DNA of 28,575 nt from an uncultured Planctomycetaceae bacterium. GTDB taxonomy: Bacteria; Planctomycetota; UBA1135; GCA-002686595. Positions within the stretch are counted from its first letter, which is position 1; the number at the start of each line of letters is the position of its first letter. The DNA is taken from the NCBI GenBank assembly GCA_964509445.1, contig CAZDYS010000003.1:1-28575 (forward strand), written 5' to 3'. This document shows, one piece after another, positions 1 to 18,571 of this stretch. Made by a program: the position numbers and the translations under genes. Under the pieces are notes generated by a model. It did not search any database. It saw nothing but the letters and a program-made list of their open reading frames with translations, and was not told the DNA's origin.

Positions 1-428
1 AACGCCTGGGGCGCGGCCGCGGGCACCGCTTCGGGGAGCGGCGCGGACGGCTCGTCGAGGCCGAACAGGTCTTCCTCGAGGGCCGGGTCCGGTGCCGTCG
101 TCGGCTGCTCGAAGATCGCTTCGATCTCCCGCGAGGTGGCGGCGTCGGCCTCGGCTGCCTCGGGCGTCCCAGACGTCACCGGCGTCACGGCCGGAGCGGG
201 AGCGGCGGCCGGAGCCGGCGTCTCCGCAACGGGTTCCACGGGCGCCGGGGCAGCCGGGAGCGGGGCCGGAGGCTCCTCCTCGCGGAGCTCTTCGCTCTGG
301 AACGCGGCGAAGATCGCCTCGAGGTCCTCCTCGTCGTCGAGCGACTGGTCGACGTCGCCGAGGTGCTCTTCGAAACCGAAGATGTCCTCGTCGAGGTCGA
401 TGTCGCCGTGCTTCGGATGTTCGGTCAA
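1..428 (-). CDS. Hypothetical protein, 5' part only (runs off the window); acidic, Pro/Ala-rich low-complexity N-terminus
   Basis: Manual translation from TTG at 428, 3 nt past the stop of the 432-1385 gene: MTEHPKHGDIDLDEDIFGFEEHLGDVDQSLDDEEDLEAIFAAFQSEELREEEPPAPLPAAPAPVEP..., open to position 1. Absent from the ORF track because it is truncated. Confidence 0.6.
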   Translation of the reverse strand, partial: MTEHPKHGDIDLDEDIFGFEEHLGDVDQSLDDEEDLEAIFAAFQSEELREEEPPAPLPAAPAPVEPVAETPAPAAAPAPAVTPVTSGTPEAAEADAATSREIEAIFEQPTTAPDPALEEDLFGLDEPSAPLPEAVPAAAPQA

Positions 429-431
429 AGC

Positions 432-1385
432 TCAGCCCTCGAACGCGATGGGGACGGTGGGCTCGGAAGCGGTCAGGCGACCGAGCGCGTGCTGGAACGC
501 AGCCGGCGCCAGGACGGACTTCTCCGAGCGCGTGTTCTCGACGAGCTCCAGCAGCCGCTGCGGCTGCAGGCTCTCGGCCGGCGGAGGCGTCGTCCCGGTG
601 TGCGGCACCGGGCTCAGCTCGAAGTCGAGCTCGACGCTCAGACCGTGGGACTCGATGCGCGACGAGACCTGGTCGGCGAGTCGATGGACGAGGAAGCGCC
701 GCTTCTCGGAGACGGAGTTCGTCGGGGTGATCGCGAAGCCGGTGACGCGCACCCAGGCGAACCGGCCCTCGAGGCCGGCGTGGAGCTCGATGCTCTCCTG
801 GGGCAGCGCGGTCGTTTCCTCGAGCACCGCCGCCGCGGCCGCCGCGATGCGCACGACGTGCGGCATGCAGACGCCCGTGCGGACGAGGAAGGCGACGAGG
901 TCGCGCGTTCCGGTGCAGGCGACGCCGAGGTCGTTGGGGTAGCTCGCTTCGAGCGTCGGTCCGAGATCCGCGGCGGACGTGACCGGAACGAGCGGCTCGG
1001 GACCCGCGGCGCTCTCGACGGCGGTCACGAACGACCGCGGAGCGAAGGCCTCCGGCACGACGTCGGTGATGCCGAGCTCCATCGCGCGCATCAGATGGTC
1101 GGGATCGTTGCCGGTGCCGACGAGGACGACGGGCACCTGGACCAGGTCGAACGGCAGGCTCTCCAGGAGGAGCAGTCCGCGGACGCCGTTCTCGTGAGCG
1201 AGGTCGACCACCAGGACGTCGATCGCCGCGTGAAGAGGGCGGTCCAGCTCCTCCAGCCGGGGAAGCCGCGTGACCTCGTGCTTGCGCGCGGACAAGAGCT
1301 CGACGAGCGCGTCCACCCGCGGGCAGGAGGAGGAGGAGATCGCGACGCGCAGGGGCCGCTGGGAAGAGGATTGGATCCGGATCAC
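432..1385 (-). CDS. Degenerate receiver (REC) domain fused to an RsbW/HATPase-like domain, 317 aa
   Basis: GTG start at 1385 overlaps the upstream TGA (GTGA coupling). REC-like segments LRVAIS..., IDVLVVDL, VPVVLVG, MRAMELGITDVVPEAF. The C-terminal half resembles an anti-sigma/HATPase fold (LEASYPND...IAAAAAAVLEETT...IELHAGLEGRFAWVRVTG). Confidence 0.68.
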   Translation of the reverse strand: MIRIQSSSQRPLRVAISSSSCPRVDALVELLSARKHEVTRLPRLEELDRPLHAAIDVLVVDLAHENGVRGLLLLESLPFDLVQVPVVLVGTGNDPDHLMRAMELGITDVVPEAFAPRSFVTAVESAAGPEPLVPVTSAADLGPTLEASYPNDLGVACTGTRDLVAFLVRTGVCMPHVVRIAAAAAAVLEETTALPQESIELHAGLEGRFAWVRVTGFAITPTNSVSEKRRFLVHRLADQVSSRIESHGLSVELDFELSPVPHTGTTPPPAESLQPQRLLELVENTRSEKSVLAPAAFQHALGRLTASEPTVPIAFEG

Positions 1386-2107
1386 GCCGAAATCGCTCCC
1401 TGCAGGAAGGAACCCTGCCGCTCGGTCTCGTCGTCGATCGGGACGGTGAGAGTGGCGACGGTCGTCGCGTCGAGCGAGCGCGAGAGCTCGAGCGTTCCGC
1501 CCATCAGCTCCAGGTCTCGCTCGGTCAGGGTCAGCCCCAGACCCATGCGGCGCCGCTTCGTCGAGCGGAAGGCCGCACGCGCGTCCTTCGAGTCGAAGTC
1601 GCTTCCGCAGCGGTTGAGGATGCGGAAGGTGATCTGGTCCCCCTCGTGGCGCGCGACGACGAGGATGTCCTCCTGGGTCGCTTCGAGCGCGTTCTCCACC
1701 AGTCGGCGCACGGACCGCGAGAGCAGCGGGGCGTCGAGACAGACGGTTTCTTCCGCCTGGTCCCGCGCCACCAGCACGCGGTTCCGTTGAGCGGGCGGGA
1801 GTCCGGTGACGACCGTGCGAGCGATCTCGCTGGTCGTGCAGCGCATCGGCATCAGGGTCGGCTCGGCGACCAGCTCCAGCAGCCCGCGCACGTTGCGGCC
1901 GATGTCCTGAAGCTCCTCCAGCGCGCACTCCACGAGGCCCTGGTCCGAGTGCCCGGCGGGGAGGCGATGTTCGAGCGCCTCGAGCGAAGCGCGCAGCGCG
2001 GACAGGGGGACGTCGAGGCCGCTCGAGAGAGCCGAGCCGAAGGCTTCGCCCGGCTGCAGTTCGGGCAGGGCTCGTCGGGGTCGGGGGCTGTCGTGCTCGG
2101 TCCGCAT
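1382..2107 (-). CDS. Histidine-kinase-like protein (HisKA-like helix + HATPase_c) lacking the phosphoacceptor His, 241 aa
   Basis: H-box-like ALSSGLDVPLSALRASLEAL, N-box LVENALEA, F/G2-box AFRSTKRRRMGLGL, then MGGTLEL...TVATLTVP. No sensor or transmembrane domain. Confidence 0.8.
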   Translation of the reverse strand: MRTEHDSPRPRRALPELQPGEAFGSALSSGLDVPLSALRASLEALEHRLPAGHSDQGLVECALEELQDIGRNVRGLLELVAEPTLMPMRCTTSEIARTVVTGLPPAQRNRVLVARDQAEETVCLDAPLLSRSVRRLVENALEATQEDILVVARHEGDQITFRILNRCGSDFDSKDARAAFRSTKRRRMGLGLTLTERDLELMGGTLELSRSLDATTVATLTVPIDDETERQGSFLQGAISA

Positions 2108-2169
2108 GGATCGGTCGGGGAACGCGGGGAGAGGCGTCGGGCAGCTCTCGGGAGCCGCCTACACGCGCC

Positions 2170-2197
2170 CTTTCGACCGAATCCGGAAAACGCTTGA
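2170..2197 (-). promoter_or_regulatory. Sigma-28-like promoter for the kinase-like/REC-like operon
   Basis: Minus strand TCAAG-N15-GTCGAAAG, about 60 nt upstream of the ATG at 2107; resembles TAAA-N15-GCCGATAA. Confidence 0.45.
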
Positions 2198-2265
2198 ACG
2201 TCCGGGAGGGGCGATTGCCCTTTTTTTCTGGGCCCTAGGAAGAGCCCGCCCGGTGGGGCCGGACC

Positions 2266-3141
2266 CTACTGGATCCCGTACAGACGCATCTTGTTGTAGA
2301 GCGTCGTCCGGTTGATCCCGAGCGTGCGAGCCGCCTGGCTGCGGTTGCCCGCCGCTTCTATAAGGATGCGACGGATGGCCGCCTCCTCCACGTCGCGCAG
2401 CACGCGGCCCTCGGAGCGGGGCGGCAGCGGGATGAGCGCGTCCGAGTTCGCGGGCGCCGACGGAGCGGCCCCCGGCACGTGGCCCGGCTCGATCGTGCCC
2501 GCGGAGCCGCTGGCGACGGCGGCGCAGGTCAGGGTGGCACGCAGCTCCAGCAGTCCGCCGGACCAATCGCGTGCCTCGAGCGTCTCCACGGCGTCCGCAG
2601 ACAGGGTGAAGGCGCGCCCCAGCGCGTCACGCAGCTCCGCCAGCAGGCGGTTCGCGATCGTCGCGAGGTCCTCGATCCGTTCGTCCAGGCCGGGAACGCG
2701 CAGCGTCAGCACGTTCAGGCGGTAGAAGAGGTCCTCGCGGAACCGCCCCTCCTCGACCTCGAGCTCCAGGTCCTTGGCGGTCGACGCGACCAGGCGCGCG
2801 GCCGCCGTGGACCCGGTGGAGGCCACGCGCTCTTCGAGGGTCGCGACCAGGCTCTCCTGGCTGCGCGGGTCGAGGTCGGCCACCTCCTCCAGGAAGAAGG
2901 TTCCTCCTTCCTGCGTGGCGAGCGGCGAAGGGTGCCCCTCGTGCCGTGCCGCCTGCACGCGGACGAACGGACCGCCCGCGGCGGGCGAGGCCTCGTGGAT
3001 CGCGCGGGCCGTGAGCTCCAGCTCGATCCCGCGGGATCCACGCAGGAGCACCGTCGTGCGCGGGGTTCCCGCGACGCGTTCGACCTGGCCCGCGAGCCGC
3101 GTGGCCGCGGCCGAGGGTCCGAAGAGCAGCTCCGGTTGCAT
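2266..3141 (-). CDS. NtrC-family (sigma-54 activator-like) AAA+ plus Fis-type HTH protein with degenerate ATPase motifs, 291 aa
   Basis: Likely start MQPELLFG at 3141. Contains TVLLRGSRGIELE (Walker A position), GGTFFLEEV (Walker B position), EEGRFREDLFYRLNV, and a C-terminal HTH GNRSQAARTLGINRTTLYNKM. No receiver domain and no GAFTGA loop. Confidence 0.85.
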   Translation of the reverse strand: MQPELLFGPSAAATRLAGQVERVAGTPRTTVLLRGSRGIELELTARAIHEASPAAGGPFVRVQAARHEGHPSPLATQEGGTFFLEEVADLDPRSQESLVATLEERVASTGSTAAARLVASTAKDLELEVEEGRFREDLFYRLNVLTLRVPGLDERIEDLATIANRLLAELRDALGRAFTLSADAVETLEARDWSGGLLELRATLTCAAVASGSAGTIEPGHVPGAAPSAPANSDALIPLPPRSEGRVLRDVEEAAIRRILIEAAGNRSQAARTLGINRTTLYNKMRLYGIQ

Positions 3142-3362
3142 GGCGACGATCGTACGGATCGCGCGAGGCGAGCAAAGGCTGCCCTCGGGAACTCCTGCGC
3201 TCCGATCTCGCGACGGAATCTCTGCAACGCGAACGCGACCCGGCGCGCGGAACGTGGCAGCGAGGACGCCCTTCACGGGGTCCTGAGACGGGCTTTGAGA
3301 AATCCTGTCCGGGTCGGGCTGCGCGCGCGCCGGCGGGATCGGCGGAATTCTCGCGGCGCGAA

Positions 3363-3390
3363 CTCATGCGGTCCGGGGGGACACCGAGAA
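3363..3390 (+). promoter_or_regulatory. Sigma-28-like promoter for flagellin 1
   Basis: CTCAT-N15-ACCGAGAA, 77 nt upstream of the flagellin ATG; same -35 type and spacing as the flgM promoter (CTCAC-N15-GCCGATAA). Confidence 0.5.
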
Positions 3391-3467
3391 CAGCCGCGGT
3401 ACGAGGGACACGTCCCCCGCACCTCCCACCTCAGACGAACCTAGAACCCCGGTAACCCCAGACCATC

Positions 3468-4295
3468 ATGGGACTTCGAGTCAACTCCAACATCAGCTCG
3501 GTCGCGGCCCAGCGCCACCTCGCGGTGGTGACGGACCGCCTGAGCGGCAACTACCAACGACTGGCCTCCGGCATGCGGATCGCTTCGGCGGCCGACGACC
3601 CCGCGGGCCTCGGTGTCTCCGAGCGCATGCGTGCTCAGCTCAAGTCGCTGTCGCAAGCGGCGCGCAACGGCCAGGACGGCGTCAGCCTCGTCCAGACGGC
3701 CGAGGGTGCGCTCAACGAGGCGAACGCGAGCCTCAACCGGATGCGTGAGCTGGCCGTCGCTGCTGCGAACGGCACGCTGAACTCCGGAGACCGCACCACC
3801 CTGGACGCCGAGTTCCAGGCTCTCCTGAACGAGATCGACCGGCTCGCCGACACGACCGAGTTCAACGGAGTCAACCTGCTCAACGCGGCAGGCGGCACGA
3901 TCGACATCCAGATCGGTACCGAGCAGGGCGAGGTCATCTCGCTCAGCCTCGCGGACACGTCGACGACCGGCCTCGGTCTCAGCCTGACGACGTTCGACAT
4001 CACCACGGTGACGAACGCCTCGGCGACGCTCGCGACGATCGACTCCGCGATCGACCAGCTCACGCAGACGCGTGGTGGTCTCGGTGCGGCCCAGAACCGC
4101 CTCAACACGGCGATTCGAAGCCTGCAGAACGCGAACCAGAACCTCGCGGCGGCCGAGAGCCGCATCCGTGACGTGGACGTCGCCCTCGAGACGGCGGACC
4201 TCACGCGGAACACCATTCTCCAGCAAGCTGCGGTTTCCGTGCTCAGCCAAGCGAACGCACAGCCGCAGATCGCTCTCTCCCTCCTCCAGGGATAA
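3468..4295 (+). CDS. fliC: Flagellin (short, essentially D0/D1 only), 275 aa
   Basis: N-terminal LRVNSN...RLASGMRIASAADDPAGL, VQTAEGAL, RMRELAV; C-terminal LGAAQNRL, AAESRIRDVDVALE, ILQQAAVSVLSQAN. Confidence 0.98.
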   Translation: MGLRVNSNISSVAAQRHLAVVTDRLSGNYQRLASGMRIASAADDPAGLGVSERMRAQLKSLSQAARNGQDGVSLVQTAEGALNEANASLNRMRELAVAAANGTLNSGDRTTLDAEFQALLNEIDRLADTTEFNGVNLLNAAGGTIDIQIGTEQGEVISLSLADTSTTGLGLSLTTFDITTVTNASATLATIDSAIDQLTQTRGGLGAAQNRLNTAIRSLQNANQNLAAAESRIRDVDVALETADLTRNTILQQAAVSVLSQANAQPQIALSLLQG

Positions 4296-4658: not shown

Positions 4659-5483
4659 ATGGGACTTCGAGTTAACAACAACATCTTCTCGCTGAACGCA
4701 CAGCGCAACCTGGGCAACGTCTCGGGTCGCCTTGCCGGCAACTACTCCCGGCTCTCCTCCGGTCTCCGCATCGCTACGGCGGCGGACGACGCGGCGGGCC
4801 TGGGTATTTCGGAGCGCATGCGCGCGCAAGTGCGCTCGCTGAACCAAGCCTCGCGGAACGCCTCCGACGGTATCGCCCTCGTGCAGACCGCCGAAGGTTC
4901 CATGGGTGAAGTCAACGCCAACCTCACGCGGATGCGCGAGCTGGCCGTCCAGGCCTCCAACGGCACGCTCAACTCGGGCGACCGCGACGTCCTGAACGAC
5001 GAGTTCACGGCTCTCATCTCCGAGATCGACCGCGTCGCCGACGACACCACGTTCAACGACGTGTCGCTCTTCACCGGCTCCACCACGAGCATCGACATCC
5101 AGGTCGGCGTGGACTCCGGCGAGACGATCTCGATCTCGCTCTCGACCGTGACCGACGCCGGTCTCGGCCTCGACGGCACGAGCTTCGACATCACGACGTC
5201 GACCAACGCGCAGGCCGCCCTCGCGACGATCGACTCCGCCATCGACACCGTCACGAGCTTCCGTGGCGACCTCGGTGCCGCCCAGAACCGCCTGTCCTCG
5301 ACCGTCCGCAGCATCGGTGCGGCGTCCGAGAACCTGCAGGCCGCCGAGAGCCGCATCCGCGACGTGGACGTGGCCATGGAGACCGCCGACCTGACGCGGA
5401 ACTCCATCATGCAGCAGGCCGCTCTGTCGGTCCTCGCTCAGGCGAACAGCCAGCCGCAGCTGGCGCTCTCGCTCCTCGGCTAG
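4659..5483 (+). CDS. fliC: Flagellin (short, essentially D0/D1 only), 274 aa
   Basis: True start MGLRVNNN at 4659, preceded by AAAGGA. Contains LSSGLRIATAADDAAGL, RMRELAVQASNG, LGAAQNRL, AAESRIRDVDVAME. Confidence 0.98.
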   Translation: MGLRVNNNIFSLNAQRNLGNVSGRLAGNYSRLSSGLRIATAADDAAGLGISERMRAQVRSLNQASRNASDGIALVQTAEGSMGEVNANLTRMRELAVQASNGTLNSGDRDVLNDEFTALISEIDRVADDTTFNDVSLFTGSTTSIDIQVGVDSGETISISLSTVTDAGLGLDGTSFDITTSTNAQAALATIDSAIDTVTSFRGDLGAAQNRLSSTVRSIGAASENLQAAESRIRDVDVAMETADLTRNSIMQQAALSVLAQANSQPQLALSLLG

Positions 5484-15707: not shown

Positions 15708-16439
15708 TTGAGCCGCGAGCCCGAGTACGCTCCGGTCGACGCAGCCGTCGATCGCGACGCGCTGATCCTCGATCACGTGCCGCTGTTGCACCACATCGTG
15801 GGGCGCATGGGGTGGGACGTTCCCGGTCGCATCGACCGGGACGACCTCCTGGGCTGGGGCATGCTCGGCCTGATCGCGGCCGCCGACGCGTGGGATCCCT
15901 CGCGCGGGCTGAAGTTCTCGACCTTCGCCTACCCGCGGATCAAGGGCTCGATCCTCGACGAGCTGCGGCGCAACGACTTCCTGCCGCGCGGTCGGCGCGA
16001 GAAGCTGCGCGAGCTCGAGAACGTCGTGCGCGACCTCGAGCAGGAGAACGGGCTCCCGCCCACTCCGGAGGAGATCGCGAAGGCGCTCGGCGTCGACCAC
16101 GAGGAGGTGGATCAGATCATGCACTCGGCGCGCGTCGCGGGCAGCGTGTCCCTCGAGGACGGGCCGTCGGAGACGCTCGCGCAGATGCTCAGCGACCCGA
16201 GCAGCCAGGACCCGGTCGGGACGGCCGAGTACTCCGAGCTGAAGGGGCTCTTGGTCCAGACCATCTCGAAGCTGCCCCAGCAGGAGCAGGCCGTCATCAC
16301 GCTGTACTACGGCGAAGAGCTGCTCTTGAAGGAGATCGGCGAGGTCCTGGGAGTCACCGAGTCGCGCGTCTCCCAGATCCACAGCCGCGCGATCTACCGG
16401 CTCAACCGTGAGCTCGTCTCCCTGACCGGAACCCTGTGA
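15708..16439 (+). CDS. fliA: Flagellar sigma factor sigma-28 (FliA/WhiG family)
   Basis: DDLLGWGMLGLIAAADAWDPSRGLKFSTFAYPRIKGSILDELRRND, ITLYYGEELLLKEIGEVLGVTESRVSQIH. Confidence 0.95.
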   Translation: MSREPEYAPVDAAVDRDALILDHVPLLHHIVGRMGWDVPGRIDRDDLLGWGMLGLIAAADAWDPSRGLKFSTFAYPRIKGSILDELRRNDFLPRGRREKLRELENVVRDLEQENGLPPTPEEIAKALGVDHEEVDQIMHSARVAGSVSLEDGPSETLAQMLSDPSSQDPVGTAEYSELKGLLVQTISKLPQQEQAVITLYYGEELLLKEIGEVLGVTESRVSQIHSRAIYRLNRELVSLTGTL

Positions 16440-18193: not shown

Positions 18194-18526
18194 TCAACCG
18201 CGGAGCAGGCCTTCGGCGGCGCGCTCGAGGCGCTCCTGCGTGCCGAGCTCGCCCGCGATGTAGGCGGCTCGCAGCGCATCGACGCGGTCCTGACGCTCGG
18301 CGTCCTGGGCCGTGGAGTCGACAGCGGCGCTCGACAGCTCGATCCGGTCGCCGCGCGGCTCCTGGGAGCGTGCGGCCTGCGCCTCGCGTGCGGCCTTGCG
18401 AACCTCTTCGAGGCCCTCGAGGTCGGCACGCGCATCCTCCACGCGCTCACGGACCGGCTGCCTGTCGGCGTCGAGGCGGCCTCGACCCGGCTTCAGCGGT
18501 TCGGGTTGTCTTCCGTGGACTTCCAT
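18194..18526 (-). CDS. flgM: Anti-sigma-28 factor FlgM-like protein, 110 aa
   Basis: ATG at 18526 with AAGGAG SD; DRIELSSAA and RQDRVDALRAAYIAGEL match the FlgM D-x-V-E-I-S and R-x-x-K-V-x-x-L-K-x-x-I-x-x-G patterns; preceded by a perfect GCCGATAA. Confidence 0.75.
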   Translation of the reverse strand: MEVHGRQPEPLKPGRGRLDADRQPVRERVEDARADLEGLEEVRKAAREAQAARSQEPRGDRIELSSAAVDSTAQDAERQDRVDALRAAYIAGELGTQERLERAAEGLLRG

Positions 18527-18571
18527 GAGAGGCTCCTTTTCCAAGAGGATGGGAAAGGTTTCCTGCCTCCG

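Follow-up and report, generated by a model that had tools for sequence, protein, structure and literature searches.

INTRODUCTION

RetS of Pseudomonas aeruginosa inhibits GacS through binding at its DHp domain, and DivL of Caulobacter, in which a tyrosine takes the place of the histidine, binds DivK~P. These proteins are among the closest described counterparts of the locus analysed here: three adjacent genes (A, B and C) of an uncultured planctomycete, located next to a flagellin gene in a stretch of 28,575 nucleotides (hereafter the window) that forms the first 28.6 kb of contig CAZDYS010000003.1. The genes encode, respectively, a receiver-less homologue of sigma-54 activators, a pseudo-histidine kinase, and a protein in which a pseudo-receiver is joined to an RsbW-like domain.

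For gene A, the nearest precedents are NtrC-family AAA+/HTH proteins that lack the GAFTGA motif, such as VpsR (V. cholerae), TyrR (E. coli), HupR/NtrC (R. capsulatus), NtrX (B. abortus) and Caulobacter NtrC (PMC6158489, PMC10274813). These atypical enhancer-binding proteins (EBPs) work at sigma-70-type promoters without ATP-driven remodelling, and some of them have non-consensus Walker motifs (PMC6158489, PMC10274813). For gene C, the Leptospira protein LvrC (PDB 9QIH) is an anti-sigma factor under Rec control that is phosphorylated by LvrB and was crystallised with ADP (PMC13269768). In the HptB-HsbR-HsbA-FlgM system of P. aeruginosa, a response regulator with an RsbW-like kinase domain controls flagellar genes via anti-sigma interactions (PMC5085249).

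In the literature library searched, nothing was found on how planctomycetes regulate their flagella or on the present module and, as a first-pass annotation of the window had supposed, no described system that matches the ensemble. Here we compare the three genes with their counterparts in related genomes, and we propose that they probably represent the lineage-specific, catalytically stripped first three genes of a conserved flagellar regulatory operon.

RESULTS

Three regulators without canonical catalytic motifs open a conserved flagellar operon

Genes A, B and C are minus-strand neighbours running divergently from the flagellin gene fliC1 (Table 1). The same arrangement recurs in one GTDB family of the Planctomycetota, where about 80 genomes show it, and in three metagenome loci: fliC lies on one side and, divergent from it, the order is A-B-C-D-TPR-TPR-PAS kinase (G)-canonical activator (H)-flgB flgC, where G is a PAS-HisKA-HATPase kinase and H is a REC-AAA+-HTH activator. 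The C family was single-copy in 98 of the 121 genomes sampled from this family. A C profile run against 200 genomes of the phylum gave many generic receiver matches, with the full-length ones essentially confined to the window's family.

Residue losses in A, B and C were scored against canonical positional orthologues. The first-pass annotation had described three adjacent, apparently catalytically dead regulators divergent from flagellin, and this description is borne out by the coordinates, the Pfam matches and the motif alignments; the residues it had named as missing from each protein are indeed missing when compared with the positional orthologues. Profile and structure comparisons, which it had recommended, upheld these losses and confirmed the folds (LvrC/RsbW for C, ZraS/RetS for B). 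Linkage to flagellar genes, which it had also proposed, was present in every related locus examined.

Gene A has lost the ATPase motifs and retains the DNA-binding domain

The A protein matched the Pfam families Sigma54_activat (PF00158, 2.4e-23), PF14532 (3.2e-18), AAA_lid_14 (6.4e-8) and HTH_8 (1e-12), and no receiver domain was found by Pfam. Its Walker A motif reads GSRGIELE versus GESGVGKE in the positional orthologues, with loss of the lysine, and a deletion of about 20 residues removes the GAFTGA loop (L1), which is GAFTG[GA] in the orthologues. Walker B is LEEV versus LDE[IV] (EE for DE) and sensor II is GGLLEL versus GNVREL (LL for VR), with loss of the arginine. The FREDLFYRLN block and the Fis-type HTH are retained. 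The homologues of A are likewise short, receiver-less proteins (42-60% identity), all of them without the GAFTGA loop; Walker A is dead in most, the distant P0073 and P0025 retaining the lysine, and the sensor II arginine is also missing from the closest ones. Among 5.8 billion proteins, the nearest canonical relatives of A were its positional orthologues in genomes G001 and G046, which supports their orthology.

The state of A was then recorded across 83 loci, with A called intact when Walker A, the GAFTGA-type loop, Walker B and sensor II were all canonical. By this definition A was intact in 41 loci and degenerate in 23, and it was not found adjoining C in the remaining 19; a canonical receiver was also present in 27 of the 41 intact proteins. 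The dead state is common to a multi-genus clade. Across 14 degenerate-type A proteins the mean pairwise identity was highest in the HTH (0.73), followed by the AAA+ core (0.49-0.55) and the lid (0.38), and lowest in the linker (0.18). The crude ratio of nonsynonymous to synonymous substitution rates (dN/dS) was 0.39-0.60 for A and 0.46-0.70 for FliD; these Nei-Gojobori values are read only relative to FliC and FliD, because dS is saturated (proportion of synonymous differences about 0.5) and biased by third-position G+C. That the HTH is the best-conserved part of A and that the dN/dS of A is FliD-like argues that A still binds DNA. We infer that A is now a sigma-54-independent DNA-binding regulator, which could serve as a repressor or an activator at sigma-70/28-type promoters or, alternatively, could interfere with (poison) the canonical activator H.

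Like the atypical EBPs, A combines an L1-loop deletion with a retained and conserved DNA-binding domain. It differs from them in having no receiver or other N-terminal sensory domain, in the combined loss of the lysine of Walker A, the DE of Walker B and the arginine of sensor II, and in its location in a flagellar cluster; moreover, canonical orthologues occupy its position in sister genera, which makes the transition traceable. In the closest metagenomic relative (L001:8929-11029), two unrelated genes, a methyltransferase gene on the opposite strand and a haem-oxygenase-like gene, are inserted between A and B, indicating that A is not always co-transcribed with B and C.

Gene B encodes a sensorless pseudo-histidine kinase

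The B protein matched HATPase_c (1.4e-7), and its HisKA match (0.026, 15 bits) fell below the cut-off of 26.9. Its H box reads S29-G-L-D-V-P-L, with serine where the phospho-accepting histidine is expected (H-E-x-x-T/N-P-L). The G1 box (DxGxG) is missing, and both the N-box asparagine (N139) and a G2-like GLGL are present. The position of the histidine is variable among the orthologues (H, K, Q, R, S or A). Since the G1 box is absent from all 17 aligned orthologues and the histidine is found in only four (L003, G018, G014 and G016), B is an old pseudokinase throughout the family.

The AlphaFold2 model of B (predicted local distance difference test (pLDDT) score 85) matched the catalytic cores of ZraS (template modelling (TM) score 0.70) and RetS (TM 0.66, 6dk7), as well as HK853 and CpxA, in Foldseek, and the complex of RetS with the GacS DHp domain (7n0e) was also among the matches. 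Among the orthologues, conservation is strong in the DHp helix motif (PLxALRAxxExL), and the crude dN/dS of B (0.46-0.67) is FliD-like. A word-based homologue search with B returned two relatives only. The likely mode of action of B is binding via its DHp helices, either to the receiver fold of C or, as RetS does with GacS, to the DHp domain of the operon's real PAS kinase G. With RetS and DivL, B shares a DHp and CA fold without kinase chemistry. It differs from both in being a minimal soluble protein of 241 aa without sensor, transmembrane or receiver domains, and in being translationally coupled to a REC-anti-sigma gene. The stop codon of B overlaps the start of C (Table 1), and the two genes also overlap or abut in the orthologous loci L001 (11963/11966) and L003 (9776/9779).

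Gene C joins a degenerate receiver to an RsbW-like domain without an ATP site

The Response_reg match of C (2.8e-4, 21 bits) lies below the cut-off of 30.2, versus 61-67 bits in the two canonical orthologues scanned, and the window's C gave no Pfam match to HATPase_c_2 (PF13581), which scored 46-56 bits in four orthologues scanned. In the receiver the acidic pair is replaced by SSS, the threonine by glycine and the lysine by glutamate, and only the phospho-acceptor aspartate (D61) is retained; the aspartate at this position is invariant in the four closest orthologues. In-frame deletions have eliminated both the N box and the G1 box of the Bergerat domain. C carries at least eight window-specific deletions, all of them in frame, and the family-invariant residues outside the deletions are retained.

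The fold is nevertheless recognisable. The AlphaFold2 model of C has a pLDDT of 83, rising to about 90 over residues 11-125, which form the (beta/alpha)5 fold of the receiver. The top Foldseek match was LvrC (9qih; E 5e-10 over 310 columns), and the profile match to 9qih had an E-value of 4.8e-20. The Bergerat fold matched RsbW (TMt 0.81-0.89; 0.85-0.89 for 6m36), UsfX (8ih8) and SpoIIAB (1til), and receiver domains were matched as well. A word-based homologue search with C returned itself only.

A canonical-looking receiver (DE..D..T/S..K-P) was present in most of the 20 genera aligned first. Under a strict four-residue test, 19 receivers passed in the 83-genome sample, including 11 among the 41 with intact A. 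The N and G1 boxes were intact in 79 of the 83 genomes; in each of the four that depart from this (the window, G024, G097 and G059), A is degenerate. Degeneration of the receiver has a different distribution from that of the ATP site: the receiver is degenerate in many lineages, and lacks the metal and phosphate ligands in the window's clade, whereas the ATP-site deletions are private to the window's genome. In a tree of C, the window grouped with three other degenerate-A loci (Shimodaira-Hasegawa-like approximate likelihood ratio test, 99), and this group was nested in a clade of nine members whose A either is degenerate or was not found.

We infer that C derives from an LvrC-type, Rec-gated anti-sigma factor. 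In the C family, as in LvrC, a receiver at the N-terminus precedes an RsbW/SpoIIAB-type Bergerat domain, and orthologues in sister genera likewise have a canonical receiver and intact ATP motifs. In contrast, the window's C has a degenerate receiver pocket and no N or G1 box, and the family carries an additional conserved C-terminal tail of about 60 residues; identity to LvrC is about 14%. HsbR resembles C in being an RsbW-like response regulator whose genes lie beside flagellar genes. However, HsbR has a PP2C domain, acts on the STAS protein HsbA and is phosphorylation-dependent, whereas there is no STAS or PP2C gene in the operon of C, and the window's C appears incapable of canonical chemistry. 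Neither canonical phosphorylation nor nucleotide would gate C here; if functional, it would be a constitutive or protein-gated, binding-only module of the anti-sigma type.

Sigma-54 promoters ahead of B are rarer with a degenerate A in the sampled genomes

Initial sigma-54 and sigma-28 regular expressions returned almost nothing upstream of fliC, and the lineage motif was derived from aligned upstream regions. Upstream of B, an A-tract followed by (A/T)TCAAGCG-N13-G(T/C)CGAAAG was present at a conserved position in 13 of 13 orthologous loci. A motif of the same class, (C)TCATGCG-N13-CCGAGAAC with the core CGAGAAC, was found upstream of fliC1 in 18 of 19 loci, regardless of the state of A. A loose version of the pattern matched just these two sites in the window. 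Both motifs are sigma-28-like and, judging by this resemblance, would be recognised by FliA. The sigma-28-like promoter ahead of B and C and the GTGA coupling between these genes, both noted in the first-pass annotation, are thus present and conserved in the orthologous loci.

Just downstream of the sigma-28-like motif ahead of B, a sigma-54 promoter (TGGCAC-N5-TTGC, at most one mismatch) was found in 20 of the 41 intact-A genomes versus 2 of the 23 with degenerate A, and the match was perfect in many of the former. In the window's clade none was found ahead of B, where the sigma-28-like promoter remains. At the same threshold, no sigma-54 promoter was matched anywhere in the 28.6-kb window; rpoN is retained in the organism's own genome. 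A scan of positions 1-3600 for consensus sigma-70 promoters and terminators found nothing. A canonical A would activate the operon starting with B and C via sigma-54, and the window's clade would have lost both this promoter and the ability of A to act at it.

Other conserved elements were observed in these intergenic regions. Three loci with intact A (L046, L049 and L051; genomes G011, G046 and G127) have no sigma-54 consensus ahead of B and share at this place the near-palindrome GGAAGCGCTTTCC, which might serve a different regulator as its operator. Upstream of the fliC1 promoter, the block GAACGCGACCCG is conserved in the four closest loci. The 5' leader of fliC1 (window 3390-3467; 19 loci) contains, downstream of the promoter motif, the conserved blocks CCTCAGCGA... 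and CTAGA(A/G)ACCGG, which may mark a site of post-transcriptional control.

The canonical kinase and activator lie downstream in the same operon

The trio shares its flagellar-cluster location and its histidine-kinase and NtrC family membership with FlgS/FlgR, FleS/FleR and FlrB/FlrC, which the first-pass annotation had cited when it suggested a repurposed flagellar two-component module. The reading of the trio as a pair of the FlgS/FlgR type was rejected, because a canonical kinase and activator are present separately downstream in the operon; the equivalent of FlgS/FlgR here is the pair G and H, and the trio forms an additional upstream layer. The window ends within gene D. The remainder of the operon was traced to two other contigs of the same genome (C350:16-4287 and C100:3-650), which carry a TPR gene and H split by the contig break. 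This H carries every canonical motif. The PAS kinase G presumably lies between the C350 and C100 parts, where it was not searched for. Between the window's genome and L003, H is 81-90% identical, and A only 53%.

Elsewhere in the family (L058 of G016, L053 of G053, L071 and L076), B and C, or C alone, lie away from flagellins and are followed by an H-like activator. In those genera changes are seen both in its GAFTGA motif and in its Walker B motif (GPFAGP and QG, respectively, in G016), which suggests that the second activator degenerated independently there.

Table 1. Positions of the genes and sequence elements in the window
Feature	Position	Strand	Remarks
Gene A	3141..2266	minus	291 aa; ATG start backed by homologue N-termini
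Gene B	2107..1382	minus	241 aa; DHp + CA fold, sensorless
Gene C	1385..432	minus	317 aa; GTG start; pseudo-receiver + RsbW/SpoIIAB-like Bergerat domain + family-specific C-terminal tail
GTGA overlap, B stop (TGA) / C start (GTG)	1385-1382	minus	Read from sequence; translational coupling
Sigma-28-like motif TCAAGCG-N13-GTCGAAA ahead of B	2197-2171	minus	Preceded by A-tract 2221-2227
Same-class motif TCATGCG-N13-CCGAGA ahead of fliC1	3364-3389	plus	Divergent from A
Gene D, 5' part	3..428	minus	Cut by contig end; no Pfam family; next after C
Two flagellin genes	3468-4295, 4659-5483		
fliA	15708-16439		
FlgM candidate	18197-18571	minus	Weak (E 0.0037)

Besides the two flagellin genes, the flagellar cluster of the window includes fliD, fliS, fliO, fliR, flhB, flhA and flhF. 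Three other FliA-like sigma-factor matches, besides fliA, were found elsewhere in the genome, on contigs C32, C598 and C25. In the product of gene D (window 3-428; L003:10771-11595) the N-terminus is strongly acidic and contains D/E-x-I/L-F motifs in repeated copies; in the ESM Atlas this protein gave weak TPR/BamD-like leads only, below 0.8. A small gene encoding 156-207 aa lies between fliC1 and A in three other loci (L001:7398-7868, L003:7392-7871 and L004:5488-6111); its product has a hydrophobic, signal-peptide-like N-terminus and belongs to no Pfam family. The window has no such gene, and the spacer between A and fliC1 (3142-3467) measures only 326 bp. Summed contig depth was 5- to 10-fold higher at 2641-2760 in all four sequencing runs; this carries no copy-number signal, since the FREDLFYRLN block, which is conserved in AAA+ activators, collects activator contigs of other organisms. 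No RNA runs were found, only DNA runs of one biofilm metagenome, in a search that was not RNA-specific.

DISCUSSION

The comparison probably describes the opening genes of a conserved flagellar regulatory operon that have been stripped of their catalytic residues in a particular lineage. Several genera have A and B in the same degenerate state, which is therefore not a local error. Orthologues with intact motifs, which the first-pass annotation would have taken as a sign of local decay or sequence error, do exist for A and C; we read them as evidence of lineage-specific rewiring rather than of faulty sequence. Its proposal that the chemistry was lost in a coordinated manner is not supported, as there was no single event: the losses in B are family-wide, those in A extend over several genera, those in the receiver of C occur in many lineages, and those in the ATP site of C are private.

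What the stripped genes do is a separate matter. One reading is that they form a working partner-switching circuit for flagellar gene expression that is independent of phosphorylation and nucleotide, and this we put forward only tentatively, as an unlikely possibility. Under such a scheme, pseudokinase B would bind the pseudo-receiver of C via its DHp helices, and this binding would decide whether the ATP-less Bergerat domain of C sequesters FliA or a FliA-like (sigma-70-family) sigma factor, while the ATPase-dead A would occupy former enhancer sites independently of sigma-54. If this is true, the family would offer a natural series that begins with an LvrC-like anti-sigma switch gated by a phosphorelay and ends with one that is purely stoichiometric.

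Several findings weigh against the proposal that the trio is a rewired regulatory module. No inverted repeat that might be an operator for A was found in 2100-2270 or 3140-3470, and the operon contains neither a gene for a STAS antagonist nor one for a PP2C protein. In three sister lineages (L050 of G069, L063 of G111 and L064 of G134, the last on a short contig) A was not found adjoining B and C, indicating that it is dispensable; in L050, B is directly divergent from fliC1, so that the fliC-B junction is seen. In the window, the terminal branch of C (1.61 versus a median of 0.33) is about five-fold long, and the crude dN/dS of C, 0.76-1.24 overall, is highest in pairs that include the window (0.86-1.24); both values are compatible with decay. 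Once phylogeny is taken into account there are about six state changes in A, two of them on well-supported branches. The associations between the state of A, the sigma-54 promoter and the receiver of C, assessed with phylogenetically independent pairs (two supported contrasts, six in all), are statistically unsupported because there are few independent events. A complex prediction for two copies of B with C, with a separate alignment for each chain, scored 0.00 and weighs neither way.

The main alternative is that the genes are decaying relics: control would have moved to the sigma-28-like promoter and the downstream kinase/activator pair, leaving A, B and especially C dispensable, their frames open since stop codons are rare at 70% G+C. 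We judge this improbable for the trio, and its case is strongest for C. There, the long branch and the dN/dS near 1 coincide with loss of the Bergerat core, and the stop-to-stop frame over C spans 498 codons, an open frame of a kind that can arise by chance; the absence of A next to B and C in the three sister lineages points the same way. For C, therefore, relaxed selection or decay in this genome may be the explanation. On the other hand, at least 14 degenerate-type relatives of A combine an HTH identity of 0.73 with a linker identity of 0.18, degenerate A persists in several genera, and A and B have FliD-like dN/dS ratios. Even in C the deletions are all in frame and spare the invariant positions outside them, and conservation extends to the GTGA coupling and to the promoter that precedes B. 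The first-pass annotation had regarded a dN/dS near 1 as an argument against repurposing: the ratios of A and B are lower (0.39-0.67), and that warning applies to C in the window. Its emphasis on intact frames survives in part, in that the frames are free of indels in four assemblies; taken alone they are weak evidence, because long open frames occur by chance at 70% G+C. Its conclusion that the module was repurposed and is phosphorylation-independent is accordingly plausible for A and B and unproven for C.

A residual, non-canonical phosphotransfer, in which the PAS kinase or a histidine-bearing B orthologue phosphorylates D61 of C, would be compatible with the invariance of this aspartate in the four closest orthologues, with the H-box histidine in B of L003 and G018, and with the presence of a real PAS-HisKA-HATPase kinase in the same operon. 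Receivers depend on the acidic pair, the lysine and the threonine both to transfer the phosphoryl group and to switch conformation. C has neither the metal-binding acidic pair nor the lysine, and in this genome the threonine is missing too; B lacks G1 in all aligned orthologues and the histidine in this genome, and A has no receiver. We therefore consider phosphotransfer very improbable.

Finally, an artefact of misassembly, sequencing error or chance open frames, which a fragmented metagenome-assembled genome (916 contigs, 72.8% complete) with low coverage (about 5-10x) and a G+C of about 70%, prone to spurious frames, might invite, is scarcely credible and is largely refuted by the reproduced sequence: positions 1-3600 were recovered without indels in the per-run assemblies of four runs, though all from a single biofilm metagenome sample. 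In addition, 2-3 contigs have recorded copies of the A, B and C proteins, the third-position G+C of A and B (0.87-0.88) is typical of real genes here, and independent metagenomes and genomes contain relatives at 42-60% identity with the same degenerate motifs.

Taken together, the parts of this locus are of known kinds, each with a described analogue: A is an atypical EBP, B a pseudo-histidine kinase and C a Rec-anti-sigma factor. What appears undescribed is their combination with a canonical kinase/activator pair in one conserved planctomycete operon, together with a series from canonical to dead proteins within one family. For the window's genome the meaning may be less dramatic, as C at least may simply be decaying. 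For the family it is broader: its operon unites two NtrC-type activators, a pseudokinase, an LvrC-type Rec-anti-sigma protein and TPR proteins, and the first activator and the Rec-anti-sigma protein are found within it at every stage from canonical to catalytically dead. The family thus provides a comparative series for how sigma-54 EBPs become sigma-54-independent regulators and for how two-component parts turn into binding-only modules, and it marks flagellar clusters as a place to seek the sigma partner of LvrC-like proteins.

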